The notes beneath the pieces are model-generated. The model did no database searches and had not been told where the DNA came from. It saw nothing but the letters and a program-made list of their open reading frames with translations. From contig OY729431.1 of assembly GCA_963422395.1 (NCBI GenBank), positions 2,240,001-2,304,000 on the forward strand: a stretch of DNA of 64,000 nucleotides, read 5' to 3'. The translations under genes and the position numbers were made by a program. This DNA is from Vicinamibacteria bacterium (GTDB lineage Bacteria; Acidobacteriota; Vicinamibacteria; Marinacidobacterales; Marinacidobacteraceae). This document shows positions 2,090 through 49,436 of the stretch, piece by piece. Each line of letters opens with the position of its first letter. Within the stretch, counting starts at the first letter, position 1.

Positions 2090-4294
2090 TCATTGCTTCC
2101 CTGCTTTTGCTGCCTTCTGCCGTGGAATTTCATGGTATCTGCTCAGTCTCCAAGGCCCATTCCCGACTTCAGACACTGCCTGAACGCAAATGTGGACTCG
2201 GCGATACCCTAAATCACCCTCCTTCTTCTTCGCTTCCGGCTTTTCGAAATCGGCCTCCAAGTAGATTCCATCAAAGGAATTGGTGATCTTTACGTTATCC
2301 GCAATATTCCATTTTCCCCCATTTGAATCCGAACATACGGCCACCTTCGGAGCAGTGGTGCGAACTCTTTTACCCCCCTCATCCAAATACTGGCGGTATT
2401 TGATGGTCCTCGCTTTAAAACCAGTGTGGTCATCAGGCACAGTGAGGTCACTTTCGGGGATATCGACTTGCCACACAACGCTCATCATGGTGGGCGTCGA
2501 TGATGAAGAACTGAAGACGCTAGGAGATCTTGGCTTCCCTGGACGGGTTTGTATTTCCTCGTTGTCTTTCGGAACAGACCAATCACTCTCACCGGAGTCG
2601 TTCTCATAGCGCAGACAAAGCAGATACCCAGTGTAGGGCTTGAGGTTGCGATCCATCGTGATTCGAATGTTGTCAACTTGCCTGCTGGTCGGATTCTGGT
2701 CCTTCAACAGCGGACCGGAATCACAGCGATCCTGTATCTCTTTGGTCGAGTCGCCGTTCCTGACTGGATTGGCAACCACCCTGGCCTCATATCCGAAACC
2801 TTTCTTGAGGCTGAATCCACTCCAAGTGATCGCCTTCGTAATCTCATCCTCGATTGTAGGGTCTCCAACTGTCGAGGGGCTAGGAGATGTGATCCCCCAA
2901 GCGAACGACAGGTTCTCGCGGAGATTTTCCGAATTTTTGGTTCGGACGCATAGAAGTTTCTTAACTACCTCACTCTCGCTGATTGTGTACGAGGTCCGGG
3001 TAGGCTTATCACTTTCCCAATCACCACTGACGTCGCAAGTCTCCTTGGAGGGGCGTTGGATCTCGTATTCGGCACCAGGGAGCCGGTCCCAGATCCAGGT
3101 GATGCTGTCCGCTGTGCTCGTCCAGCGGACATTCAGACTCCCCGCACCTTCATCAGGGGTCCGATTCGATCCGCCGCCACCGGAGGGGGCGGTGCCCGTC
3201 GTCGTGCTCGAGACCGTGCTGCTCCAGGCACCCGTCTTCTTCGCGGCGTTGCTGCTGGCCGGGATGGCGCGGATACGGAAACCGTAGTCGGTGCCGCTAT
3301 CCAGGTCGCTCGCCACGCAGCTGGCATCGTCCACTTCGTTGTCCTCGTCTGCACCGCCGCAGCTGGACTCCGCCCAAGAGCTCGTCCCGTCGACTTGCTG
3401 CTCCACTTCGTAGTGATCGGCGCCATCTACTGCTTTCCAAGCGATGGAGATCGAGGTATCGGTCTCGTCACCGGTCAAGAGGCTTTTCGGAGCGGCGAGC
3501 GCCGTGGGCGCGGCGGGCTTCTTCGTCGTCCCCTCGGAGGGTTCCTCCACCCACTCGCCGAAGAGCGGCTCGGTGACCGTCCCCGCCCAGGCGCGAACCC
3601 GCAGGTAGCCGGTGCTGGACCCGGTGAGGTTCGGCACCCGATGCTTCGTATTCTGGGCGCCCGTCAGGATGAATAGCGGGTCGCCGTCTCCGAAGGTCTT
3701 GTCATCGCTGAACTGGACCTGGTAGCCGGCGGCGCCTTCCACTGCTTTCCAGGTCCACTCGATGAAGTCCGAGCCCGTTGCAGAGACCTCGAGCCCGATC
3801 GGCGCCGCCGGCGCGGTGGGCGCAGCAGCGGTCGTCGTGCCCGTCACATGCGTGGACCAAGAGCTGTACACCCGGTCGTCCCCCTCCCCCACGAATGCGC
3901 GCACCCGGAGGTAAGCCTTCGTCTCGGCGGCGATGCCTTCCTTGCGGTACGAAATCTGCTCTGCCGTCCTGGCGACGATTTCGTCTTCGCTGGTGAACGC
4001 TTCGTTGGCGCTGAACTGGACCTGGTAGCCGGCGGCGCCTTCCACCGCTTTCCAGGACCACTCGATGAAGTCGGCTCCGGCGGCGGAGGCCGCGAGCCCG
4101 GTCGGCGCAGCAGGTGCTTCGGGCGCCGGCGGCGTCGGAGTCGGCGGTGCCGGCAGTGTCGGAGTCGTCGGCGTCGGAGTGCTGTCTTCCCCGCAAGCGG
4201 CGATCGAGAAGCCCGCACCGAGGAACAGAACGAGCAGCAGAGCCCAAGAACCCATCCGTCGGGCGGAGAAAAAACCTGCTTCGAGCAACTTCAT
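2090..4294 (-). CDS. Fibronectin type III repeat lipoprotein (paralogue 1)
   Basis: GGGAGG RBS before ATG 4294; lipobox-like LVLFLGAGFSIAA-C; Pro/Thr linker; at least three FN3-like units (APTGL..FIEWSWKAVEGAAGYQVQ..YLRVRA); Cys-containing C-terminal region. Confidence 0.85.
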   Translation of the reverse strand: MKLLEAGFFSARRMGSWALLLVLFLGAGFSIAACGEDSTPTPTTPTLPAPPTPTPPAPEAPAAPTGLAASAAGADFIEWSWKAVEGAAGYQVQFSANEAFTSEDEIVARTAEQISYRKEGIAAETKAYLRVRAFVGEGDDRVYSSWSTHVTGTTTAAAPTAPAAPIGLEVSATGSDFIEWTWKAVEGAAGYQVQFSDDKTFGDGDPLFILTGAQNTKHRVPNLTGSSTGYLRVRAWAGTVTEPLFGEWVEEPSEGTTKKPAAPTALAAPKSLLTGDETDTSISIAWKAVDGADHYEVEQQVDGTSSWAESSCGGADEDNEVDDASCVASDLDSGTDYGFRIRAIPASSNAAKKTGAWSSTVSSTTTGTAPSGGGGSNRTPDEGAGSLNVRWTSTADSITWIWDRLPGAEYEIQRPSKETCDVSGDWESDKPTRTSYTISESEVVKKLLCVRTKNSENLRENLSFAWGITSPSPSTVGDPTIEDEITKAITWSGFSLKKGFGYEARVVANPVRNGDSTKEIQDRCDSGPLLKDQNPTSRQVDNIRITMDRNLKPYTGYLLCLRYENDSGESDWSVPKDNEEIQTRPGKPRSPSVFSSSSSTPTMMSVVWQVDIPESDLTVPDDHTGFKARTIKYRQYLDEGGKRVRTTAPKVAVCSDSNGGKWNIADNVKITNSFDGIYLEADFEKPEAKKKEGDLGYRRVHICVQAVSEVGNGPWRLSRYHEIPRQKAAKAGKQ
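3706..4072. repeat. 64-bp intragenic direct repeat (3706-3769 and 4009-4072), FN3 module duplication
   Basis: cgctgaactggacctggtagccggcggcgccttccacYgctttccaggWccactcgatgaagtc occurs twice with 2 mismatches. Confidence 0.9.
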
Positions 4295-4480: not shown

Positions 4481-5746
4481 TCAACCCCCTGTCAACACCG
4501 CGGCAATCCGGCCGACGCCCGCGTTCATCAGCGCGTCGATCCGGTCGGCGATGCGCTGCGCGGGTTCGCGGAGCTGCTCGATGGTCCAGTCGGCGGCGTA
4601 GCCCTCGGTCACATCACCAGGCCGGGCGTGGTTCACCAGCCGCTTGGTCAGGGAGCGCGGCAGCAGCAGCTCGCGCTCGGCCACGGTGATGAAGCAGTTG
4701 CGCAGGCCGTGGAACCAGAACCTCGCGCCGCCCGCGCGCCCGATGCGGTCGTAGAGATGGTGCAGCTCTTCGATGTGGCCCGAAGTGCTGGCGGGCGACG
4801 GGAACACCCAGCCGCTCGGCCGTCCCGGGTCCTGCGCCCCCGCCCGGCGCCGCTCGAGGAGATCGGCCAGTTGCCGGGTGATCGGCAGCTCCAGCGGCTC
4901 GCCGGTCTTGGTCTCCTCCACCCGGAAGAGGCGCTCTGCCAGGAACACTCGCTCCCAGCGGAGCGTGAGGATCTCGCCCCGGCGCATCCCCGTGTACAGG
5001 CCGAACAGGAAGATGTCGCGGGTCGCCGGGACGGTCACCTCGGCATCGATCCCCGACCGCCACCGGGGCAGCACCTCGGCCGGGGTGGGGATTCGCCGCC
5101 GCCTCTTGTTGTGGAAACGGCCGCCCCCGGCCAGCCAGAGCTCGACCGGATTGCGCAGACCGTCGTGGTCCACGCACGGCCGGCGGTAGATGGAACGCAA
5201 CAGGGAGATCGTCTGGTTGGCCGCCGCCCATCCGTTCCGCTCGGTGATGCGGTGGAAGCGCGCTTCCACCTCCCGGCGGGTGATCGTGTTCAGAGGCCGC
5301 GCCAGCCAGTCGCCGAGGCAACGGCTCCCATGGCTTCGATCGAGCGCATCGGTGCCCGCCGCGCGGTTGGGGTGGACCGCGAGGTACTCCTCGAACGCTT
5401 CTCCGAGCCTCGGCATCTTCCGCTGCTCGCCGCGCTCGCCCGCCGGATCCTCGCCGGCAGCGGCCCGGCCCAGCAGCTGCCGGGCCATCCGCCTCGCCCG
5501 GTCGGGGGCGAGATGCCCGTAGCGTCCGATGACGATGCGCCGGTTGGGCGCCTTCCGGCCGCCGTCTCCGACGCGGTAGTTGACGAGAAAGGACTTGGCG
5601 CCCGACGGGTGGACCCGCACCCCGAATCCGGTGAGCCGGTCGTCCCAGGCGATCCACGGCTTGGAGGCAGGTTCGAGGGCCTCGACGGCGCGCTTGGTGA
5701 GCGTGATCCGGAGCCGGGCGACTCGTTTCCCGGAGTCCGTGGTCAT
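4481..5746 (-). CDS. Tyrosine recombinase/integrase with N-terminal arm-DNA-binding domain
   Basis: N-terminal LTKRAVEAL..WDDRLTGFGVRV..SGAKSF; catalytic residues YTGMRRGEI (R), TKTG (K), FHGLR (HxxR), LVNH (H), VTEGY (Y) all present. ATG 5746 chosen as start. Confidence 0.93.
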   Translation of the reverse strand: MTTDSGKRVARLRITLTKRAVEALEPASKPWIAWDDRLTGFGVRVHPSGAKSFLVNYRVGDGGRKAPNRRIVIGRYGHLAPDRARRMARQLLGRAAAGEDPAGERGEQRKMPRLGEAFEEYLAVHPNRAAGTDALDRSHGSRCLGDWLARPLNTITRREVEARFHRITERNGWAAANQTISLLRSIYRRPCVDHDGLRNPVELWLAGGGRFHNKRRRRIPTPAEVLPRWRSGIDAEVTVPATRDIFLFGLYTGMRRGEILTLRWERVFLAERLFRVEETKTGEPLELPITRQLADLLERRRAGAQDPGRPSGWVFPSPASTSGHIEELHHLYDRIGRAGGARFWFHGLRNCFITVAERELLLPRSLTKRLVNHARPGDVTEGYAADWTIEQLREPAQRIADRIDALMNAGVGRIAAVLTGG

Positions 5747-5935
5747 GACGGCCAGCGTACCGACGGACGCCTTCAGGTCAACACGAAACGCAACACGGGC
5801 GAAGACGGCCGGACTTTCAGAGCCCCGCCCGATCGAGAGGATCGCGGCAGAACATCTTCCCAACCGGTTGAAAATACATATATTTTGCGATCCGATCCGA
5901 ATCGCGCCGAGACGAGCCGCCCCTACACGGCGAGG

Positions 5936-6417
5936 TTCTCCTTCTTGCCATGTTCCTGGGCGCGGGACTCGTGCTTTCGGGATGCGGCGATGACGATGCG
6001 CCGGCGACCCCGGCACCGGCTCCGGCCCCGGCCCCAGCTCCGGCACCTGAACCGGAACCGGAGGTTCCGTCGGCGCCGGCGACTCCGAGCGGGCTGATGG
6101 TTTCGGCGACGACGGAGACTTCGGTGACCTACAGCTGGACTGCGGTCGAGGGCGCGGTCGGCTATGCGGTACAGGTGAGCACCGACGAGATTTTCACCGA
6201 TGAGGATGCGGTCGTTGCGACGGTAGAGCCGACCTATACGGTGGCGGATATCGAGCCGGGAGCGACGGTGTATGCGCGGGTAGCGGCAGCAGCGACGGCG
6301 CCGCCGGATGCGGTGCTGAGTGCGTGGTCCACGCATGTGACGGGGACCTCGGACGAGCCGCCGCCGCCGAAGCCGCCGGCCCCGGACCCGGTGTCCGTGA
6401 CCTTCTCGCTGGCCGAC
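5936..6417. repeat. Left arm of about 480-bp inverted repeat (partner about 10061-10542)
   Basis: Identity starts at ttctccttcttgccatg (5936 / 10542) and continues with only a few synonymous mismatches; high similarity persists to about 6840. Confidence 0.95.
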
Positions 6418-7992
6418 AGCGCGAAGAACAGGCACCCGATGATTCCGGACGACGGCAAGGACGAGGAGACGGCGATGGCATCGGTGAACCCGGAGCTTTC
6501 GGTGGAGTCGAAGACGGATGTGGTGATCACGCCGATGTTCGTCGAGGGCGCGAGCGGGGTTCAGGTTGCGAAGGGGAGCAACGAGATGCCGTTCGAGAAT
6601 GTGAGCTGGGAGGCGCTGCAGAGCGATGTGGTATCGAAGGGAGTGACCTTCAAGGTGGTTCGGGTCACCCTGGGTGCGAACCAGGAGATGGAGCCGACGG
6701 GAGATGTGGCGTATGTGACCTGCGGTCCGTTCGATTGCGTTGCCGGCGAGGAAGCCCCGGAGATCACGATCGCCGATTCCTCCGCCTGCGAAGGCTGGGA
6801 GCCGACGCTGGAGCTTCAAGTCGGCAAAGTGGACAACGACGGAGTGGGCAAAGACGATGAAGCTGACAAGATGAACGGCTACGACATGGGCTGGCGGTAC
6901 ACCTCGAGCGATACGTTCGATGCGACCCACGAATTCGGATCTTTGATCACAGGAAAGAGCAGCGGAGTCAAGAAGAGCGCTAGCCTGAAGGGACTCCCGA
7001 TGCCGGACAAGATTGGGGCTGCCGTGACTTACGACGCCGACGTCGTCGACGGTGACGACAACTTCGAAAAGCAACAGACGGCGTGTTCCGATCCTTATAA
7101 TGCGACGAAGGCTTCCGGGGTCTTTGAGCCGGAGGAATGTTTCCGTCTCCATACCGCCAGCGATTACCTGTCGGTTTACGAAGTGTCTCTGTCATCGAAG
7201 AGTGCTGGGTTGAGCTACGGCTCGATCGTTTGGGACGAGATCAAAGATCTCTCTTGTGAACCCAAGGTGTTCGCCGCCGCCGATCAGGTGGATGTCTGTG
7301 AACTCTTCGAGGCGGAAGTCGATCAGGCCCACCCTTCGAAGATCAATGTCCAAGGGGTCTTGGATAGCGATAAGACCAAGCTCATGGGCCTCAATCTCGA
7401 CTTCACTGAATCTGGAGTACCTACTTCCGAACGCTACGCGGCCCTTTGGTACCACGATGGTTCGAAGCCCATGAAAGCCGCCCCCAAGAACCTATACAAG
7501 ACCAAAGCTGAAAAATGGACCGAGGGGTTCGTCAACAGGAAAGGCGCGTCGACGTCTCCTGGAGGACGCGATGATGTCTGGATCCGACTGCTCGACAAGG
7601 GCGATGACCCGCTGCCGGAGTATGGCGACCTCGGCAAGGTGGATACGGTTGCCACCAAGGAGGGTGAAGACGACAGAAACAAATCGGATAACCACTCTGG
7701 CTACAGCTGCTCTAGCAAAGATGGCGGTGTTGCTGCGTCGGCAACGTCAACATCGGCAACCTTGGTGGCCGGTGCCTCCCTCTGCGACGCCGAAGATGTC
7801 GAGATCTCAACCAAGGTCGTCTTCACCGACAACTTCGGCAAGCATGCCTGCTCGGTGGAGAAGTCCTACGCCATCACCTGCCAGTGGGACGCGACTGGGC
7901 AATTGGGTAGAAGCAGAGAGGAAGCCCCGAGCGATCTGAGCAAGGATGGTGCCATTGACAGATTCCTTTCTTGCAAGGTGGCAGTTGAGTAA
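5950..7992 (+). CDS. FN3 lipoprotein paralogue A, 5'-truncated (probable silent cassette)
   Basis: First 156 aa identical to paralogue B from its internal Met onward. Lacks B's first 19 residues as a translatable start; in-frame stop at 5869-5871 and no upstream ATG/GTG/TTG. Confidence 0.8.
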   Translation: MFLGAGLVLSGCGDDDAPATPAPAPAPAPAPAPEPEPEVPSAPATPSGLMVSATTETSVTYSWTAVEGAVGYAVQVSTDEIFTDEDAVVATVEPTYTVADIEPGATVYARVAAAATAPPDAVLSAWSTHVTGTSDEPPPPKPPAPDPVSVTFSLADSAKNRHPMIPDDGKDEETAMASVNPELSVESKTDVVITPMFVEGASGVQVAKGSNEMPFENVSWEALQSDVVSKGVTFKVVRVTLGANQEMEPTGDVAYVTCGPFDCVAGEEAPEITIADSSACEGWEPTLELQVGKVDNDGVGKDDEADKMNGYDMGWRYTSSDTFDATHEFGSLITGKSSGVKKSASLKGLPMPDKIGAAVTYDADVVDGDDNFEKQQTACSDPYNATKASGVFEPEECFRLHTASDYLSVYEVSLSSKSAGLSYGSIVWDEIKDLSCEPKVFAAADQVDVCELFEAEVDQAHPSKINVQGVLDSDKTKLMGLNLDFTESGVPTSERYAALWYHDGSKPMKAAPKNLYKTKAEKWTEGFVNRKGASTSPGGRDDVWIRLLDKGDDPLPEYGDLGKVDTVATKEGEDDRNKSDNHSGYSCSSKDGGVAASATSTSATLVAGASLCDAEDVEISTKVVFTDNFGKHACSVEKSYAITCQWDATGQLGRSREEAPSDLSKDGAIDRFLSCKVAVE

Positions 7993-8012
7993 CGACTAGC
8001 AACCTTTGTTCA

Positions 8013-8100
8013 GGATCCGCAAAGGATGATGTGATCTGCGCCTAGCGGATCCAACGGAGCCCCGGGGCCTTCGGGCCCCGGGGTTTTCGTCTGTACGAAC
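8013..8100 (+). terminator. Conserved 3' element of paralogue A: structured hairpin plus intrinsic terminator
   Basis: GGATCCGC-N24-GCGGATCC stem (8013-8052), then CCCCGGGGCC-TTCG-GGCCCCGGGG-TTTT (8060-8087). Confidence 0.9.
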
Positions 8101-8448
8101 TCCAGAGTTCGGTCCCGTCTTCGTCGAATACCCCCGGGATTCGATCTCGGGCGGCAGGAAGGCTGCTGGACACTGGCAATCGAAGCGCTCCAAGCCGCAC
8201 ACCCTGCGCGTCCCCAGATCCCGTTGTGGTGGGCAGTTGCCCAGGGCGTTCGCCAACCCCTCCTGTCCTGCTACTCATCGCTACTCATCGCGCCGCCCGG
8301 TGCGCCGAACAGCGCGGCCCTCAGATCTCCGGCGGGAGAGAAAAGTAGAAGGCCGCCCCAGCAGTGCGCGGCGCAGACCGCACTGCATTGACGCTCGACA
8401 TCCCCTCGGGGAACACCTGCCTCCCGAGGCGGAGTCCGCAGACTCGGG

Positions 8449-8536
8449 TTCGTACAAAAGAAAAACCCCGGGGCCCGAAGGCCCCGGGGCTCCGTTGGAT
8501 CCGCTAGGCGCAGATCACATCATCCTTCGCGGATCC
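8449..8536 (-). terminator. Conserved 3' element of paralogue B (inverted copy of 8013-8100)
   Basis: Reverse complement matches 8013-8087 with one mismatch and shares the trailing TGTACGAAC. Confidence 0.9.
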
Positions 8537-8548
8537 GAAAACGAGGGT

Positions 8549-10585
8549 CTAGTTACTCACCTTGCAAGTGAGGAATTTGCTGATGTCGTCGGAGGACAGC
8601 TTATCGGCAGGATCTTTTCCTCTTCCAATGCCCGTCTCGCCGCTGGCATCCCAGTCGCAGGTGATGGTGTACGACTTCTCGACCGAGCAGGCTTTCTTGA
8701 AGTTGTCGGTGAAAGTGATCTTGGTCTCGATCTCGACATCCTCGGCGTCGCAGAGAGTGCCGTCGGTCTTGTCTTTCCCGGATTTGGCCTCGCCGCCATC
8801 GTCAGCGCTGCAAACCCGTGCGTCGTCGCCTTCTTCAAAATTCTCCGCCGTGTCGTCTCCACTGGGATCGGCATCTACCTTTCCGAGATCGCCGTAGAGC
8901 GGGTCGCCGTCCTTGTCCAGCAACGGGACCCAGACGGTGCCGCGGTCGCGTGCTTCATCTCCGGTTCTCTTGGCAACCATGCCTTGGTTGTCACCGTCCG
9001 CATAGAGATCCATGGGAGCTTTCTTCATATCATTCGATCCATCGTGGTACCAAAGGGCGGTATAGCGTTCCCCGGAAGCATCACCGAAATCGAGATCGAG
9101 GCCTACAAGCCTCGACGAGGTCGAGTTGGTGCCTACGAATCCCTTGACTTCGATCTTCGATGGATGGGCCTGATCGACTTCCGCCTCGAAGAGTTCGCAG
9201 ACATCCACCTGGTCGGCGGCCGCGAACGACACGGGCTCACAGTCGATACTCTTGAACTCATCCCACGCGATATTGCCGTATTTCACTCCGGCGCCGCTCG
9301 GCGACAGGGACACCTGGTAGGCCGACAGGTAATCCATGTCGGTGTGGAGACGGAAACAGGTTTCCGGCTCACGGAGGTCGGAAGCCTTCGCGCCGGTGTA
9401 AGTCGCACACGCCGACTCGTGCTCGTCGTTGGTGTCGTTATCCTCGGTGGCGTCGTAAGTCACGGCTTTCCCGATCGTGTCCGGCATCGGGAATCCCTTG
9501 GCACTCTTGCTCTTTCCGACCTTGCTGCTCTTTCCGTTGACGAACGGCCCGAAGTCATGGGTCGCGTCGAACTGGACATTTGCCGTGTAGGTCCAACCCA
9601 TGTCGTAGCCGTCCTTTACTCCATTCGAGTCGTCTTTGCCGTCGTTGTCCACCATGCCGACTTGGAGCGTCAGCGTCGGGTCCCAGGCTTCGCAAGCCGC
9701 CGAGTTGGAGATTCCGATCTCCGGGGCATCCTCGCCGGCAACACACTCGAACGGACCGCAGGTCACATACGACATATCGCCCGTCGGCTCTGCCTCCTGG
9801 TTTGCACCCACGGTGACCCGTACCACCTTGAAGGTCACTCCCTTCGATACCACATCGCTCTGCAGCGCCTCCCAGCTCACATTCTCGAACGGCATGTTGC
9901 TCCCCTTCGAAACCTGAACCCCGCTCGCGCCCTCGACGAACATCGGCGTGATCAACGCATCCGTCTTCGACTCCACCGAAAGCTCCGGGTTCACCGATGC
10001 CATCGCCGTCGCCTTGCTCTTGCCGTCGTCCGGCACCATCGGATGCGCGTTCTTCGCTCCGTCAGCCAGCGAGAAGGTCACGGATACCGGGTCCGGGGCC
10101 GGCGGCTTCGGCGGCGGCGGCTCGTCCGATGTCCCCGTCACATGCGTGGACCACGCACTCAGCACCGCATCCGGCGGCGCCGTCGCTGCTGCCGCTACCC
10201 GCGCATACACCGTCGCTCCCGGCTCGATATCCGCCACCGTATAGGTCGGCTCTACCGTCGCAACGACCGCATCCTCATCGGTGAAAATCTCGTCGGTGCT
10301 CACCTGTACCGCATAGCCGACCGCGCCCTCGACCGCAGTCCAGCTGTAGGTCACCGAAGTCTCCGTCGTCGCCGAAACCATCAGCCCGCTCGGAGTGGCC
10401 GGCGCCGACGGAACCTCCGGTTCCGGTTCAGGTGCCGGAGCTGGGGCCGGGGCCGGAGCCGGTGCCGGGGTCGCCGGCGCATCGTCATCGCCGCATCCCG
10501 AAAGCACGAGTCCCGCGCCCAGGAACATGGCAAGAAGGAGAATCAGTCCCCGTACAGGGACCGATTTCCTTGTGATCTGCTTCAT
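8549..10585 (-). CDS. FN3 lipoprotein paralogue B, complete (probable expressed copy)
   Basis: AGGAGG RBS; full lipoprotein signal MKQITRKSVPVRGLILLLAMFLGAGLVLSG-C; PA-rich linker; one FN3 unit; acidic Cys-containing body. Confidence 0.9.
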   Translation of the reverse strand: MKQITRKSVPVRGLILLLAMFLGAGLVLSGCGDDDAPATPAPAPAPAPAPAPEPEPEVPSAPATPSGLMVSATTETSVTYSWTAVEGAVGYAVQVSTDEIFTDEDAVVATVEPTYTVADIEPGATVYARVAAAATAPPDAVLSAWSTHVTGTSDEPPPPKPPAPDPVSVTFSLADGAKNAHPMVPDDGKSKATAMASVNPELSVESKTDALITPMFVEGASGVQVSKGSNMPFENVSWEALQSDVVSKGVTFKVVRVTVGANQEAEPTGDMSYVTCGPFECVAGEDAPEIGISNSAACEAWDPTLTLQVGMVDNDGKDDSNGVKDGYDMGWTYTANVQFDATHDFGPFVNGKSSKVGKSKSAKGFPMPDTIGKAVTYDATEDNDTNDEHESACATYTGAKASDLREPETCFRLHTDMDYLSAYQVSLSPSGAGVKYGNIAWDEFKSIDCEPVSFAAADQVDVCELFEAEVDQAHPSKIEVKGFVGTNSTSSRLVGLDLDFGDASGERYTALWYHDGSNDMKKAPMDLYADGDNQGMVAKRTGDEARDRGTVWVPLLDKDGDPLYGDLGKVDADPSGDDTAENFEEGDDARVCSADDGGEAKSGKDKTDGTLCDAEDVEIETKITFTDNFKKACSVEKSYTITCDWDASGETGIGRGKDPADKLSSDDISKFLTCKVSN
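10061..10542. repeat. Right arm of about 480-bp inverted repeat
   Basis: Reverse complement of 5936-6417. Confidence 0.95.
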
Positions 10586-10590
10586 TTCGC

Positions 10591-10662
10591 CTACCTCCTG
10601 TAGGGCGTGTTGGGACAGGACAAAGGCCCGATGGGGGCCCAGCACCGTCTCATGTATTTCAT
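10591..10662 (-). other. Candidate 23-aa leader ORF (MKYMRRCWAPIGPLSCPNTPYRR)
   Basis: GGAGG 5 nt before ATG 10662; its TAG lies inside the SD hairpin of paralogue B. Confidence 0.4.
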
Positions 10663-10724
10663 TCCTACCTCCGGTAGGACAGGGTGGCGTCGCTACGATT
10701 TCGCACCGGGCCGACCGTGCGGAG

Positions 10725-10753
10725 AGTATAGGCACGGCGGCTTGGAGAGGCAA
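10725..10753 (-). promoter_or_regulatory. Sigma70-type promoter for paralogue B
   Basis: TTGCCT-N17-TATACT on the minus strand, about 140 bp upstream of ATG 10585. Confidence 0.7.
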
Positions 10754-11056
10754 TATGCCAAACATGCGGAATCCCGAAGCCAGCACCTCCCGCACAGCGG
10801 GTGGGGGAGCTCGGGGCGAACATTCCCGTGAACTCCATCACATCGGAACGGCGATTGTCAAGGTGCCGTCCGGCCCGTGGGGAGGGCATGGAAGCCGGGC
10901 ATGAGGGGTGGGAGCGGATCTGCGGGGGCGGCCGACCACCGCGAGCCGGTCATCACCCCCGGTCCTGCCTTCGACTCATGCCAGCCGAACGCACGCACGA
11001 GAGCTGGACTCGAAGACCCGTCGAAGACCCCGTTCTCCGGGAGAACCGGAGCCGCC

Positions 11057-11130
11057 TCGGGGCGGCAGGATTTGAACCTGCGACCCCCTGATCCCGAACC
11101 AGGTGCTCTGCCAGACTGAGCCACGCCCCG
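11057..11130 (-). tRNA. tRNA-Pro(CGG)
   Basis: CGGGGCGTGGCTCAGTCTGG...anticodon loop TT-CGG-GA...GGTTCAAATCC; CCA not encoded. Confidence 0.95.
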
Positions 11131-11224
11131 GCGGCGGAAGAGATTGTAGCGACGGGGATTCGACGGTCCCGAAGCGAGCGCCCCGCCCGGACCGCGCTCG
11201 TCGGAATCGGCTGCCCGGGGCGGT

Positions 11225-11301
11225 TGGTCGGGACGGCCGGATTTGAACCGACGACCACTTGCACCCCAAGCAAGTGCGCTACCAGACTGCGCCACGTCCC
11301 G
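11225..11301 (-). tRNA. tRNA-Pro(GGG)
   Basis: CGGGACGTGGCGCAGTCTGG...loop TT-GGG-GT...GGTTCAAATCC...CCA. Confidence 0.95.
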
Positions 11302-13822: not shown

Positions 13823-14174
13823 TAGCAGCCCGGTGCGCGATCCGGGAACGGGACGGGGTGTTCAGGTCGTGTCTCGCGGTCTCGTGGGAAGGGAGGAAAT
13901 GCCCCGTTCCCGGACCGCCCGGCGCTTCGCGCCGTGAATCCGAACTCCTGCCGGAGGCAGCGAGTCCGGATTCCGAATTACCGTCTTGTGAAAGGGGACA
14001 CCCCTTTCACACTTGCCCCGGCTGCGACGCGTCCGAGGCAAAGCCTCGGCCGCAGCATGTTTTTGGACCACGGGCGGCCAGACCGGCGATGCCCAGTCCT
14101 CCCGGTGGGGACCCGGCGAAGCCCTCACCGGGAGCACTGGACCGCTCTTGGGGATCGCGCCGCTTCATCCACAG
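13823..14174. repeat. Modular intergenic repeat, copy 1 (modules A-B-C-D)
   Basis: Hairpin modules shared with 26794-27120, 27379-27747, 35214-35286 and 42259-42392, including perfect TGTGAAAGGGG-ACA-CCCCTTTCACA at 13987-14011. Confidence 0.85.
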
Positions 14175-14191
14175 ATCGTTGGGAACGGCAT

Positions 14192-16513
14192 CTACGGATC
14201 GTCGGCGATCGTCAGACGGCGCGCCAGGGAAGAGACCCCGAGCAGGCGGTGGAGGCGGCGGCGAAGGGACAGGTGGACCCCGGGGTCGGCCTTGAGCAGG
14301 ACCTGCCAGCGCGCCAGGCCCTGGGCCGAGGGGCCGGGCGCGGGAGCAGGCCCGAGAACCTCGACGCCCCGCCCGGCGGAATCGGCCGCGAGGCACTCGG
14401 CGAGCCGGGCAGCGGCGGCTTCCGCCTCGCGGGAGCGGCGGTCGGCGACCGTCAGGGTGGTGAGGCGAACGAACGGCGGATAGCGGAAACGCCGGCGCAT
14501 CTCCTGTTCGGCCTCGCGGAACGCCTCGTAGTCCTGGCGCGCGGCAGCGGCTACCGCATAGTGGTCGGGCTTCATCGTCTGGATGAGCACCCGGCCGGGA
14601 ACCTCGCCCCGGCCCGCCCGGCCCGCCGCCTGGGTGAGGAGCTGGAAGGTCCGCTCCGCAGCGCGGAAGTCCGGCGCCCCGAGGCCGCCGTCAGCGCCGA
14701 TCACTCCAACGAGCGTCACCTCGGGGAAGTCGTGCCCCTTGGCGATCATCTGGGTCCCCACGAGGATGCGGATCTCGCCGCGGCGGAAGCCGTCGAGGAC
14801 GCGGGCGTGGCTGCCGCGGGCGCGGGTGGTATCGCGATCGAAGCGCTCCACGCGGACCGCCGGCAGGAGGCGCGCCACCTCCTCCTCGACCCTCTCGGTA
14901 CCGAACCCGTCGGAGCGGAGCACTTCGCCGGTGCAGGCGGGGCAGGCCTCGGGCGGTGCGATCCCGAGGCCGCAAGAGTGGCAGACGGCGAGATGCCCGC
15001 GCTGGTGGAGGGTGAAGGCGATCTGGCAGCGGTCGCAGGCGACGATCTCCCCGCAGCGCAGGCACATGAGACGCCCGCCGTAACCTCGCCGGTTCAGGAG
15101 TACCAGCGCCTGCCGGCCTTCGCGCACCGTCGCGGCCAGCGCCGCGGCGAGCGGCGGCGAGAGAACGAGCGAGCCGCGGCGATCCGGATCTGCCCGATGG
15201 GCGCGGAAGACGGGGCGCATGTCCACGAACTCCACCTCGGGAAGCCGGCGGCCGCCGATCCGCCGGGGGAGCCGAAGCCGGGTCAGCTGGCCCGAGGCCG
15301 CGGCGTGGGCGGCTTCGAGCGATGGGGTCGCCGAGCCGAGGACGAGAACGGCGCCTTCGGCGCGGGCCCGGAACCAGGCGGCCTGACGGGCGTGGTAGCG
15401 GGGCGCCTCTCCCTGCTGGTAGGCGGCGTCGTGCTCTTCGTCGAGGACCACGAGGCCGAGGCCGGCCAGCGGGGCGAAGACGGCAGAGCGTGCGCCGAGG
15501 ACGATGCGCGCCTCTCCGGTGCGGACGCGCCAGAACGCCTCGCGGCGCTCTCTCGCCGTGAGTCCGCTGTGGAAGACCGCGAGCCCCGCGCCGAAGCGGT
15601 GCCGCAGCAACTCTTCGGCGCGAGCGGCGAGCGCGATCTCGGGGACGAGCAGGAGCGCACTGCGTCCGCCAGCGAGGCAGTCGGCGATCCCCCGGAAATA
15701 CACCTCGGTCTTGCCGCTGCCGGTGATCCCGTGGAGGAGGAACGGAGCGAAGCGGCGGGTGGCGAGGGCGTCGGCGATCTGACCGGCCGCGGCTTGCTGG
15801 TCCGCAGTGAGGAGAGGCGGTGCCGGGAACGGCGGCGGAGGCTCCGGCGCTTCGCCAGGGGACGGTGCGGCGGGCGGGGTATGCGGGATGACCGCCGCAT
15901 CCGCTTTCGAGGAGAGCCGCTCGGCGGCGAGGGTCAGGAGGCCCTCGCGTTCGAGACGGGCGAAGCTGCGCCCCCGAGGGAGGTCGAGTTCCCTGCGGAT
16001 CCGGACCAGGGGGACCGGGCCGCCGGAGACGGCGAGGAGGGTGAGGATCCGGCGGTCGTCCCGTCGGAGGACCGGGAGCCCCTTCGCCGGGCCGCCGTCG
16101 CCTTCGCCGAGCCGGGCCGCCCCCTCCGGGGTGATGCGGGCGGCGAGCAGGCGCCGGGCCGCGCCCGCCGCAGACGGCGGCGGCGGGAGCATGGCGCGGA
16201 GGACGAGGCCGAGCGGGCAGACGGTGCTCTCCGAGAGCCGGCGGGCGAGGTCGAGAAGGCTTTCGGGAAGGGCGGGGAGAGGGTCGTCGAGGCGGGCGGC
16301 AACCGGCTTTCGCGCGCGGCCCGGCAGCGAGCGGCCCGCGGGTTCGAGGGCGGGGCCGAGGACGACGCCGACGAGCTCCCGCGGACCGAAGGGGACGCGG
16401 ACGCGGGCTCCCGGAGGGAGGCTGGTCTCTCCGGGGTGGAGGAGGGCTTCGGGAAGCTCGTAGGAGAAGCTGGTCGGCAGCGGGCGCGGAACCGCGACCT
16501 CGACGCCGCGCAA
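14192..16513 (-). CDS. priA: Primosomal protein N'
   Basis: [34 protein letters not shown], Cys-rich region, [19 protein letters not shown]. Confidence 0.97.
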
Positions 16514-34139: not shown

Positions 34140-35171
34140 TCACTCGTCGGCGGACTCGGCCGGCAGATCGAGCGCCTCCCGCACCCGGGACTCCAGCTCG
34201 GCGAGCAGGGGCTCGTCCTCGAGGAGGGCGCGGCGGACCTTCTCCTTTCCCTGGCCGATCTGTTCGCCGCCGTAGGAGTACCACGCGCCGCTCTTCTCGA
34301 TGATCCGTTCGCGCACGCCGAGATCGACGAGATCCCCGACCCGGGAGATGCCCTCACCGTAGCGGACATCGAACTCGGCCTGGCGGAACGGGGGGGCCAC
34401 CTTGTTCTTGACGATCTTGACCCGGGTGCGGTTGCCGACCACGGTATCCCCTTCCTTGAGCGCGCCGATCCGGCGGATGTCCACCCGCACCGAGGAATAG
34501 AACTTGAGCGCGCGGCCGCCGGTGGTGGTCTCGGGGCTGCCGAACATGACCCCGATCTTTTCGCGGAGCTGATTGATGAAGACGAGACAGGTCGCCGACT
34601 TGGAGACGATTCCGGTCAGCTTCCGGAGGGCCTTCGACATGAGCCGGGCCTGCAGCCCCACCTGCGCGTCACCCATCTCGCCGTCGAGTTCGGCGCGGGG
34701 CACGAGGGCCGCCACCGAATCCACGATGACGACATCCACCGAGCCGCTCCGCACCAGTGTTTCGGTGATCTCGAGCGCCTGTTCGCCGTCATCGGGCTGG
34801 GACACCAGCAGTTCCTCGATGTTCACTCCGAGGGCACGGGAATATTCGGGATCGAGGGCATGTTCGGCGTCCACGAAGGCCGCCACGCCGCCCCCGGCCT
34901 GGGCCGAAGCGACCACCGTCAAAGCCAGGGTGGTCTTCCCCGACGATTCCGGACCGAAGACCTCGACGACACGCCCGCGGGGGAACCCGCCGACTCCGAG
35001 GGCGGCATCCACCGAGAGAATCCGGGTCGGGATCGCCGAAATATCCATCGCCGACGACCCGAGCTGCATGATGGCGCCCTGGCCGTACTGCTTCTTGATC
35101 TGCTCGATAGCGATGTCGAGCGCCCGGGAGCGCTGGTCGACAGCCCGGTTCGACTGGGGTTTCGATGGCAT
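34140..35171 (-). CDS. recA: Recombinase A
   Basis: [54 protein letters not shown]. Confidence 0.99.
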
Positions 35172-48026: not shown

Positions 48027-49436
48027 CTAATCGGTATCCATCGCCGGTGCCGACAAGGCGAGAGTGCCGGTGCTGTCGCCGAAGGAATCCAGCTCGAGGC
48101 CCAGCGACTGCACCAGCGCGAGCAGCGCATTCGCCATGGGAGTCCCGTCCGGCGCCTTCACATGCAGATTGCCGGCGAGATGGCCGCCCGCTCTGCCCAG
48201 CAGGATCAGCGGACAGCGCCGGTGGTTGTGGATGTTGGCGTCGGCCATCGGCGAGCCCCAGAGGATCGCCGTCTTGTCGAGCAGCGAAACGCCGCCCTCC
48301 ATGGTGTTTTGCAGCCGATCGAGGAAATAGGGGAGCTGAGCCACCCGGTACTGACAGATCCGGTTGAAGTCCATGATCCGCTCTTCGTCGTTCCCGTGGT
48401 GCGAGGCGGGGTGGAAGGGCCGGTTGGTGCCGCTCTCCGGGAACGAGCGATTCTGGGCATCGCGCCCGGTCTTGAACGAGATCACCCGGGTCATGTCGGT
48501 CTCCATCGCCAGCACCTGGAGGTCGAACATGAGTTGCATGTGCTCCGAAAAGGAGTCCGGCACGCCGGGCGGGGCGTCGGGCAGCGCGCGCGGCTCGCCG
48601 CCGTCGTTGCGGCCTTCGACCAGTTGGATGCGCCGCTCGACCTCGCGGACATCGTCGAGGTAGCGGCCGATGCGGAGGCGGTCCGCGCTGCCCAACTCCT
48701 TTTCGACCTCGGCCACATCGCTGAGGATCCAGTCCAGGATGCCGCGCCGCGTTGCCCGGCGCTCGGCGCGTTCCTCGGCAGTGCTGCCCGCCCCGAACAG
48801 CATCTCGAATGCCACGCGCGGGTCGCGGATCATCGGCAGCGGCTCGCTGGGCGACGACCAGCTGATCGAGTCGGTGTAGGCGCACGAATAGTTGTAGGTG
48901 CAGCCGCCGGCCTGATCGAGATTCTCGATGCAGAGCTGCAGCGACGGCATCGGCGTGGACTGGCCGAACCTCTGCGCATAGAGCTGGTCGAGCGAGGTGC
49001 CGACCCACAGGTCGGAACCCTGGGTCTGCTTCGGGTGGGACTGCGTCAGGAAGACCGAGGACGACCGGAAGTGGTCCCCGCCGATCTCCGGCGGGCTGAG
49101 CGCCTCGGCCATTCGGACATCGGTGTTGCTGACGATGGTCAGGTAGTCGCGGAACGGCTCCAGCGGTTTCAGCGCGTTGTCGGGCAGCAGCTCGAAATCG
49201 CGCCCCACCGCGGCCGGCGCGAACAGGTGCCGGCTGGCGCCCCACTCGTTGCAGCCGGGCAGGCCGTGCACCTCTTCGATGCAGACCAGGCGCGTCAGGT
49301 CCGGCGACGCCGCGGCGAGGCCGCGGCCCGAACGGCCCGCCGGGATCATCGCGTCGAGAAACGGGAGGGCGACAGAGGCGCCCGCGCCGCGCAGGAAGGT
49401 CCGGCGAGGCAGGTGCTTTCCGGTCAGGAAGGACAT
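48027..49436 (-). CDS. DUF1552 (HXXSHH) protein with Tat-like signal
   Basis: RRTFLRGAG..LPFLDAM, FHPASHH, H...RCPLILLG.AGG. Confidence 0.9.
   Translation of the reverse strand: MSFLTGKHLPRRTFLRGAGASVALPFLDAMIPAGRSGRGLAAASPDLTRLVCIEEVHGLPGCNEWGASRHLFAPAAVGRDFELLPDNALKPLEPFRDYLTIVSNTDVRMAEALSPPEIGGDHFRSSSVFLTQSHPKQTQGSDLWVGTSLDQLYAQRFGQSTPMPSLQLCIENLDQAGGCTYNYSCAYTDSISWSSPSEPLPMIRDPRVAFEMLFGAGSTAEERAERRATRRGILDWILSDVAEVEKELGSADRLRIGRYLDDVREVERRIQLVEGRNDGGEPRALPDAPPGVPDSFSEHMQLMFDLQVLAMETDMTRVISFKTGRDAQNRSFPESGTNRPFHPASHHGNDEERIMDFNRICQYRVAQLPYFLDRLQNTMEGGVSLLDKTAILWGSPMADANIHNHRRCPLILLGRAGGHLAGNLHVKAPDGTPMANALLALVQSLGLELDSFGDSTGTLALSAPAMDTD

Follow-up and report, generated by a model that had tools for sequence, protein, structure and literature searches.

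A candidate recombinational switch between two FN3 lipoprotein cassettes beside a phage-type tyrosine integrase in a Vicinamibacteria genome

Introduction

How could a bacterium with one promoter and one signal-peptide start display two different surface lipoproteins in turn? This question is raised by a locus in a 64,000-nucleotide (nt) stretch of DNA, called here the window, which covers positions 2,240,001 to 2,304,000 of the forward strand of contig OY729431.1 (assembly GCA_963422395.1, Vicinamibacteria bacterium) and in which two genes for lipoproteins with fibronectin type III (FN3) domains, named A and B, stand tail-to-tail next to a gene for a tyrosine integrase. An earlier note on the window had proposed that recombination between the outer repeats of this gene pair would fuse the body of A to the promoter and signal peptide of B. 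The analysis reported here indicates that the locus is probably the minimal two-cassette form of a recombinational lipoprotein switch resembling the vsa and vpma systems. A single promoter site, startless copies with open frames, a common 5' site and an adjacent tyrosine recombinase gene were all found, and strong comparative evidence supports the heart of the proposal, namely one expression site, a silent spare in frame, an adjacent recombinase and swapping at the 5' end. The putative switch system is family-wide and not peculiar to the window. The best-known cases of lipoprotein switching from a single expression site are those of mycoplasmas and of a few other bacteria living with hosts, often as pathogens.

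In the layout of the proposed switch, a fixed expression site (10543-10753, minus strand) carries the promoter, the leader, the ribosome-binding site (RBS) and the start codon together with the charged first part of the signal peptide. The cassettes start at the core motif TTCTCCTTCTT and end at a hairpin terminator, B being joined to the expression site and A being an inverted, putatively silent spare. Recombination between the two inverted cores would flip the segment 5936-10542, after which A would be fused in frame to the expression site and B would be parked beside the integrase. The crossover could follow either of two routes, site-specific exchange by the adjacent integrase with its arm-binding domain or RecA-driven exchange anywhere in the 647-nt arms of the pair, and we think that both occur.

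Organization of the cassette pair

Gene A (5950-7992, plus strand, 680 amino acids (aa)) and gene B (10585-8549, minus strand, 678 aa) are convergent FN3 lipoprotein genes whose products are 70% identical, and the tail-to-tail quasi-palindrome that had been described at 5936-10542 was recovered with its coordinates and inverted repeats. Residues 1-156 of A equal residues 20-175 of B without a difference. At the DNA level, the outer inverted repeat pairs the left arm (5936-6582, plus strand), which holds the 5' coding region of A including an FN3 domain, with the right arm (9896-10542, minus strand) over 647 nt at 97% complementarity. Outer repeats of about 480 base pairs with 156 identical aa had been reported before; the identical aa and a near-identical part of that length stand, the first 478 nt (5936-6413), but the DNA of this part carries three mismatches (at 6081, 6348 and 6393) and the full repeat is longer. 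The arms contain exact runs of 145 and 266 nt, and beyond 478 nt their identity decays 3'-ward with patches of high identity. The inner inverted repeat (8013-8087, plus strand, and 8462-8536, minus strand) measures 75 nt at 99% likeness and not the roughly 85 base pairs previously given. Its left copy comprises the 3' untranslated region (UTR) of A and a GC hairpin terminator (CCCCGGGGCC-N4-GGCCCCGGGG) with a T run behind it, its right copy comprises the 3' UTR and terminator of B, and a spacer of 374 nt (8088-8461), unique in the genome, separates the two terminators. In the scanned clusters of relatives, most family cassettes terminate in the same hairpin. In the 2.9-Mb single-contig genome the arms exist in exactly two copies, and the flank upstream of B, the flank upstream of A and the spacer are each single-copy.

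The homology between A and B begins at TTCTCCTTCTTGCC ATG, and the DNA upstream of that point in A is unrelated. B is preceded by AGGAGG, 8 nt 5' of its ATG, and its signal MKQITRKSVPVRGLILLLAMFLGAGLVLSGC was judged by eye to be a full lipoprotein signal, in which MKQITRKSVPVRG-LILLLAMFLGAGLV-LSGC provides a charged n-region, a hydrophobic core and the lipobox cysteine. The frame of A opens only at 5872, its first start codon leads into MFLGAGLVLSGC without a purine-rich RBS, and on its own A lacks a signal-peptide n-region and, again by eye, does not read as a lipoprotein. Cassette A (5950-7992, plus strand) is accordingly described here as a putatively silent open frame of 680 codons, lacking a promoter conserved in relatives, an RBS and a charged signal start.

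Synonymous (dS) and non-synonymous (dN) divergence between A and B were computed in 50-codon windows. In the first 150 codons dS stays at 0-0.05, in the following 150 it amounts to 0.08-0.3, and further 3' it is 0.3-2.8 or saturated, exceeding 1 in the 3' half; the dN/dS ratio is mostly 0.2-0.5 and about 1 in two windows. Because of this gradient and of the 99%-alike 3' UTR and terminator, the bodies are judged to be old and both ends to have been recently exchanged. Since A has kept its 680-codon frame despite a dS above 1 in the 3' half, selection for coding has acted on it, and an intact frame with neither start nor promoter suggests that A is used at times.

Cassette B at the expression site (8549-10585, minus strand) encodes in its 678 aa a signal peptide, a Pro/Ala linker, an FN3 domain and further beta-sandwich domains. 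The AlphaFold2 model of B, obtained with a 52-sequence alignment, has a mean predicted local distance difference test (pLDDT) score of 80.9 and is almost entirely beta-strand. Foldseek comparison with the PDB gave matches that, among those listed, are almost all FN3 or immunoglobulin (Ig)-like, with low whole-chain template modelling (TM) scores; for 7y8h_A the TM score normalised to the target is 0.82, with a root-mean-square deviation of 2.4 over 98 columns. Pfam fn3 matched at 22.3 and 21.9 bits, below the 25-bit cut-off, and the FN3 assignment therefore applies at the level of the fold. The variable body of B and A had no match in NCBIfam, no usable match in the ESM Atlas and only the weak fn3 match in Pfam, and 121 proteins of a large protein collection match it, the best at 54% identity and almost all without a name. 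Given the beta-rich model and the FN3/Ig matches, B is therefore likely to be a lipid-anchored string of beta-sandwich domains, which would be displayed on the surface and there meet the host or phages.

A common junction within the signal-peptide codons

The junction of the silent copy (5936-5952, plus strand) reads TTCTCCTTCTTGCCATG, and homology to B and to all family cassettes starts at its first base; the same motif forms the junction at the expression site (10526-10542, minus strand). The core TTCTCCTTCTT is located within the codons of the signal-peptide hydrophobic core, and all copies meet differing upstream flanks there. The relatives compared are metagenome-assembled genomes (MAGs) entitled in their records Acidobacteriota, Vicinamibacteria or 'Candidatus Marinacidobacterium', many of which we take from their isolate names to be sponge-metagenome bins. 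A 40-nt pattern of core and signal was found 1-7 times per genome in 20 of the 28 family genomes and 0 times in reversed-pattern controls. With one expression site per genome, most of these genomes therefore hold several copies without an expression site.

In 60 species-representative loci, 61 distinct core sites were recovered, all joined at one nucleotide, with flanks of the expression-site type (14 sites), of the integrase type (20) or of other types (27). The integrase-type flanks include one subtype with the integrase start 144-149 nt away and the palindrome TGTCACATGTGACA, and another with the start at 244-263 nt; the other flanks often carry a GC-rich hairpin. Among startless copies with a stop codon in view, 12 of 13 with integrase-type flanks and 13 of 14 with other flanks (25/27 in total) are full length, at 592-876 aa. 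Candidate inverted elements picked out by eye around the junction are GACACGG / CCGTGWC, the palindrome already mentioned and a hairpin abutting the expression-site core. These comparisons make the core the predicted crossover point.

Contigs with the core motif were also encountered in MAGs labelled Chloroflexi, Gemmatimonadetes, Gammaproteobacteria and Synechococcus (loci L063, L066, L067, L068/L077, L075 and L081/L095/L110/L114), whose isolate-name prefixes are shared with Acidobacteria bins. They are probably mis-binned repeat-rich contigs, transfer between phyla being a less likely alternative.

Conservation of the expression site

The expression site consists of a promoter-like site (10753-10725, minus strand; TTGCCT-17-TATACT in a crude scan) with TTGCCT as -35 and TATACT as -10 element, a structured leader some 140 nt long, the RBS, and an open frame that starts with the ATG at 10585 and runs for 14 codons (MKQITRKSVPVRGL). 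The 198 nt upstream of the B core (10543-10740) have a single match in G000 and exactly one match in 13 of 16 genomes of genus g2; of the three g2 genomes that gave none, one has a completeness of 66% and another is broken into 410 contigs. When 16 expression-site regions from three genera were aligned, TTGCC proved invariant, and TATAC(T) 17 nt further on, a leader of about 140 nt with hairpins, the RBS, the ATG and the n-region codons MTQITRKSVPMRGL proved conserved; the first two are the hexamers of the promoter proposed in the earlier note. Conservation stops exactly where TTCTCCTTCTT begins. The expression-site pattern was further found in 4 metagenome contigs. Synteny in relatives, one of the checks suggested in the earlier note, consists of a conserved single expression site, startless cassettes and, often, adjacent integrase homologues.

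CCTAC-NGGAGG-TAGG, a hairpin whose loop resembles a Shine-Dalgarno sequence, occurs twice in the leader (10586-10724, minus strand) and in those of 15 aligned loci, and its second copy is the real RBS. The leader, conserved across three genera, also contains a GC hairpin with compensatory changes and may be a regulatory RNA element. Rfam at the gathering threshold reported only tRNAs in the window.

The tyrosine integrase and its geometry

The integrase gene (4481-5746 including the stop codon, minus strand) encodes 421 aa with an Arm DNA-binding and a catalytic domain; it is situated beyond the end of the predicted invertible segment, with transcription directed away from that segment. An intact tyrosine recombinase about 190 base pairs from the left arm had been announced, and 189 nt were indeed measured between its start and the arm; this intergenic flank (5747-5935) is unique in the genome, includes an A+T-rich stretch and may hold accessory sites of the integrase. 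Pfam assigned PF00589 (48.4 bits, cut-off 27.1) and PF13356 (57.4 bits, cut-off 27). In 26 full-length homologues six residues do not vary: the R in YTGxRxxE, the K in TKxGxPL, the H and R in FHGxRN, the H in LVxH and the Y in ExYA. We take them to be the residues (R, K, H-x-x-R, H, Y) by which tyrosine recombinases catalyse strand exchange. Phage integrases share 26-28% identity with the protein over its length, and a phmmer search of the PDB found no match among solved structures.

Nineteen of the 28 family genomes, among them all 15 with at least two core sites, have homologues at 64-73% identity, and a single genome may give as many as 7 matches. Seven of the eight genomes without the core motif have no integrase, and the eighth (G005) has a diverged site beside one. 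G021 has an expression site only, with neither silent copy nor integrase, and G022 has an expression site only and a decayed integrase.

Of the integrase loci fetched from family genomes, 15/30 have a beheaded cassette divergent from the integrase, mostly at a distance of 140-330 nt; in most of these cassettes an in-frame stop occurs within about 30 codons upstream of the junction, and in five it is two codons before the first leucine. In all six clusters that include an expression site (G000, G018, G014, G042, G007 and G024), the cassette next to the integrase stands in inverted orientation to the expression site, with the integrase outside and pointing away. Such a geometry is what an invertible segment with two fixed half-sites would keep, and an integrating cassette would leave the opposite one. 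The exchange would be a reversible inversion, with the integrase as its putative catalyst.

Ten integrase loci without a nearby core were re-examined, and in six of them (L022, L023, L024, L025, L028 and L041; the same context also in L026 and L039) the integrase is about 0.8 kb downstream of a cassette and co-directional with it. Upstream of these integrases lies a conserved leader some 650 nt long with GTGATA-N6-GTGATA, ATCAACACGGAATCAAC and the palindromic GGACACCGG-TTCTC-CCGTGTTCC, which looks like an attP-type region or an unoccupied core.

Exchange of cassettes among relatives

Matches to the lipoprotein family are present in 24 of 24 other genomes of the taxonomic family of the window, with up to 78 in one genome. 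Convergent pairs with long arms recur in G018 (1238 nt, 100%) and in G004 (299 nt at 100% and 828 nt at 96%, with a divergent integrase homologue 199 nt away). In G014, G007 and G024, the expressed and silent copies share just 0-60 nt at 90% or more beyond the core.

The two expression-site loci L112 and L113 have flanks that are 96-98% alike over 600 nt, and past the core their likeness is 88% in the first 100 nt, then 75%, about 60% and about 40-50%; three further pairs show the same identity step at the expression site. The cassette at the L112 expression site has a counterpart (85-87%) at the silent site L092, on another contig of the MAG of L113, and counterparts (83-88%) beside integrases in two other MAGs, its homology beginning at core base 1 with none upstream. 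Furthermore, a 4.5-kb segment that starts at the core and is 89% alike in G014 and G024 has opposite orientations relative to the expression site in the two genomes. These changes are changes between species and not switching within a clone, and they show that the core site is a place of exchange in which the expression site takes part. A search of metagenome contigs with protein A returned no relative.

Two silent integrase-adjacent cassettes, in G007 (C1, about 2.283 Mb) and G004 (C1, about 2.17 Mb), are inverted and situated 1.6-1.9 Mb from the expression sites (0.67 and 0.30 Mb, respectively), and exchange between such a cassette and the expression site would invert a large share of the chromosome.

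The locus in sequencing runs

Six sequencing runs of three studies, none of them of RNA, cover the stretch or a part of it. The junction flanks and the spacer are present in contigs from runs of three studies; contigs of X2 contain both bodies, and those of X1 and X6 only parts. The X2 contigs match 5400-11000 without a difference and, as is usual when 31-mers are assembled, break off at the arms and the inner repeat, and the arm stretch 10075-10448 has approximately double depth, the left arm having almost no depth of its own. Since the Logan contigs (X1, X2, X6) break at the arms, linkage across the arms and orientation are beyond their resolution. The palindrome as an assembly artefact had been named as a ground for abandoning the proposal, and the locus is upheld by the 30% divergence of the bodies, the contigs of three studies and the double arm depth in X2. 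An assembly foldback was rejected, given that the bodies differ by 30% and that flanks and spacer occur in contigs of three studies.

Two of the runs differ from the window. In X6 the flanks are about 98.6% like those of the window and the covered part of the A body (6630-8087) is 100% alike; one contig of 1114 nt (depth 14.9) runs through 8136-8461 and the 75-nt repeat into the 3' end of A on the opposite strand, the reverse of the window, and this one 31-mer contig represents either a flipped 374-nt spacer or bodies that have swapped sides. In X1, a 2015 run of another study, the A body is absent at 90% likeness, the 3' end of B (8513-9068) is 85% alike and its 5' two thirds are nearly identical, and the arm is joined at 10544 to a third flank that is neither the integrase flank nor the expression site, a pattern that suggests additional cassettes and mosaic alleles in this population. 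These observations show that the locus is plastic in nature.

Alternative explanations

Could RecA account for the locus without the integrase? Inversion or gene conversion between the 5' arms and the 3' terminator repeats, with the integrase as a bystander from a mobile element, would find a substrate in arms of 647 nt at 97% with their exact runs of 145 and 266 nt, and recA is present. The dS gradient and the patchy identity look like repeated conversion of the 5' end, the X6 contig shows the 75-nt inner repeat in a recombined state compared with the window, and the arms are long in G018 and G004 too. G014, G007 and G024, however, have the same architecture and exact junction with only 0-60 shared nt past the core, and homologous exchange would not yield 61 sites of three flank classes with one joining nucleotide. 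An integrase in 15/15 multi-site genomes, with catalytic motifs invariant in 26 copies, also fits a bystander poorly, and homologous recombination as the sole agent is considered unlikely. In the favoured explanation, the common junction and the short shared homology in relatives argue for a site-specific integrase step at the outer edge of the arms, and the long arms together with the dS gradient argue that homologous exchange also acts here, the long arms probably being an added substrate for homologous exchange or its trace.

The integrase and the cassette could instead form an integrative mobile element that targets the signal-peptide core and captures the promoter there, the silent copies being displaced residents; the expressed protein would then change by acquisition and replacement and not by reversible inversion. 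The phage/island type of the integrase, the several copies per genome (up to 7 matches), the six co-directional downstream integrases behind their conserved attP-like leader of about 650 nt with its direct repeats and core-like palindrome, and the site-bearing contigs in bins labelled as other phyla are all in keeping with such an element. A displaced copy, on the other hand, should be direct to the expression site, and it is inverted in 6/6 clusters; the genome of the window itself has neither a second copy of a flank nor a direct core repeat bounding an element. Moreover, G021 keeps the same expression site without an integrase, so the site belongs to the chromosome, and integration by a mobile element is judged rather improbable. 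It could finally be supposed that nothing switches, A being a decaying inverted duplicate or a mis-assembly beside an island integrase. The runs and contigs indeed gave no direct evidence for inversion or for expression of A, but the frame of A is intact over 680 codons despite a 3'-half dS above 1, 25 of 27 startless copies elsewhere are full length, the junction is identical in dozens of copies, and flanks and spacer recur in contigs of three studies, with both bodies in X2 and parts of them in X1 and X6. A static locus of this sort is very improbable.

Several observations nevertheless weigh against an integrase-catalysed inversion switch. Its integrase is of the phage/island type with an arm-binding domain, and phage/island-type integrases usually integrate and excise and do not invert; the co-directional downstream integrases are left unexplained by simple inversion. 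Some silent cores (G007 at 48104, G024 at 11069 and 28836) point the same way as the expression site, and exchange there would delete DNA and not invert it. Two of the ten expression-site copies have short frames of 205 and 37 aa, the other eight being full length. The related genomes are non-independent, and the co-occurrence counts therefore overstate the support. The flipped state appears in no contig, the contigs ending at the arms and being unable to tell orientation. That A is silent is itself deduced from sequence, the runs that cover the stretch including none of RNA. The same crude scan that located the promoter of B returned TTCCCA-16-TATATT at 5857-5884 (plus strand), in the A+T-rich patch and pointing into A, the two sites found comparing with 1.0 +- 1.0 in shuffles. 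The statement that only B has a promoter, an RBS and a full signal peptide hence stands for the RBS, the signal and the conserved B site, and the part of it that concerns the promoter depends mainly on the conservation of the B site in relatives. The pair at 5857-5884 may belong to the control region of the integrase or give antisense or sterile transcripts.

Comparison with known systems and significance

In Mycoplasma agalactiae, the vpma genes are a lipoprotein multigene family with a single promoter, in which genes are silent until a site-specific inversion; dependence on Xer1 has been shown, the recombination site is in the 5' UTR at -1 to -72, and the locus is drawn with an adjacent tRNA gene and a tyrosine recombinase gene beside it (PMC2268961). 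The window locus shares with vpma and the vsp locus of M. bovis (recombinases Xer1/Mbr) and with vsa (HvsR) the one promoter, the silent lipoprotein genes, the shared 5' site and the adjacent tyrosine recombinase. Compared with the mycoplasma loci, the enzyme is here a 421-aa phage-type Arm-domain integrase and not an Xer-like enzyme, the proteins are FN3/beta-sandwich proteins of 600-900 aa encoded in Acidobacteriota MAGs, and several integrase copies per locus and, in some pairs, long homologous arms are found, all known from sequence alone. The core also lies within codons of the signal-peptide hydrophobic core and not, as the vpma site does, in the 5' UTR. The silent genes of M. pulmonis vsa are missing their 5' ends, and the site there falls in the coding region.

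In the sap locus of Campylobacter fetus and in slpA/slpB of Lactobacillus acidophilus, an inverted silent gene has a long 5' region in common with the expressed one, and inversion swaps the expressed body; the sap promoter is inside the invertible segment and the process is RecA-dependent. Long conserved inverted 5' regions and recA are present here as well. In contrast to sap, the promoter and start codon of B (10585-10753) are outside the arms, and the precise common junction with its adjacent integrase points to site-specific exchange, a difference from both sap and slpA/slpB.

Another parallel is the hsdS (ivr) locus, where one gene is expressed, its partners are 5'-truncated and inverted, and the recombinase gene is beside the locus. 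At ivr, restriction-modification specificity domains are shuffled, whereas here whole surface-protein bodies would be exchanged behind a signal peptide. In Streptococcus pneumoniae, the tyrosine recombinase PsrA/CreX inverts DNA among the hsdS genes at inverted repeats (PMC4948785, PMC7096588).

With P4-like integrases of tRNA islands, the present enzyme has in common the Arm-DNA-bind_3 and Phage_integrase domains, and two tRNA-Pro genes lie 0.5 kb from the locus. Unlike in such islands, the integrase is 5.3 kb from the tRNA, the cassette pair is in between and no tRNA-end repeat bounds an island; its homologues adjoin cassette cores and not tRNAs.

In the open-access literature, without supplements and subscription journals, no prior description of such a switch was found, and none in the open literature of an arm-domain phage-type integrase as a resident switch enzyme on a signal-peptide site. 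The main text of a paper on intrastrain variation in sponges does not mention inversion, fibronectin or lipoprotein. Sponge-microbiome papers do mention fibronectin type III proteins. The FN3 proteins of sponge symbionts are discussed as 'eukaryote-like' factors of host interaction.

If the inversion switch is real in these uncultured Acidobacteriota, beneficial symbionts of early-branching animals vary their surface on purpose by means of FN3 proteins, the manner in which symbionts escape being eaten or infected becomes a testable locus with defined states, and a phage-type arm-domain integrase serves as a resident switch enzyme whose site falls in a signal peptide. A broader interpretation, put forward tentatively and with somewhat less than even confidence, is that phage-type arm-domain integrases have been domesticated as cassette-exchange enzymes and serve programmed antigenic or phase variation in sponge-associated Acidobacteriota. 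On that interpretation a crossover site placed in signal-peptide codons would let one chromosomal expression site display any of several 'eukaryote-like' FN3 proteins, and the variation would be aimed at host recognition, phagocytosis or phages and would extend to at least three genera, the window presenting its simplest two-state form.

Neighbouring features

The window also contains recA, as had been stated before (34344-35126, minus strand; PF00154, 441.8 bits), whose product could act on the 647-nt arms. The two tRNA-Pro genes (11057-11301, minus strand) flank the expression site and are given as context only. A tRNA attachment site was rejected, no repeat of the tRNA-Pro 3' end being found in the window and the BLAST matches being only tRNA-like and far outside; a tRNA-targeted genomic island was likewise rejected, in view of the distance of the integrase from tRNA-Pro and the lack of a bounding tRNA-end repeat. 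The idea that A is a gene split by an island carrying a promoter was also discarded, neither upstream flank having a second genomic copy.

A third FN3 lipoprotein gene, of a second subfamily, is located just past the 3' end of the integrase gene (2093-4294, minus strand); its signal ends in WALLLVLFLGAGFSIAAC and it has weak matches to SusE and DUF4992. This second FN3 subfamily has a convergent pair of its own in G004, whose arms measure 1171 nt at 98% (L019, 9720-10890 / 13831-15001).

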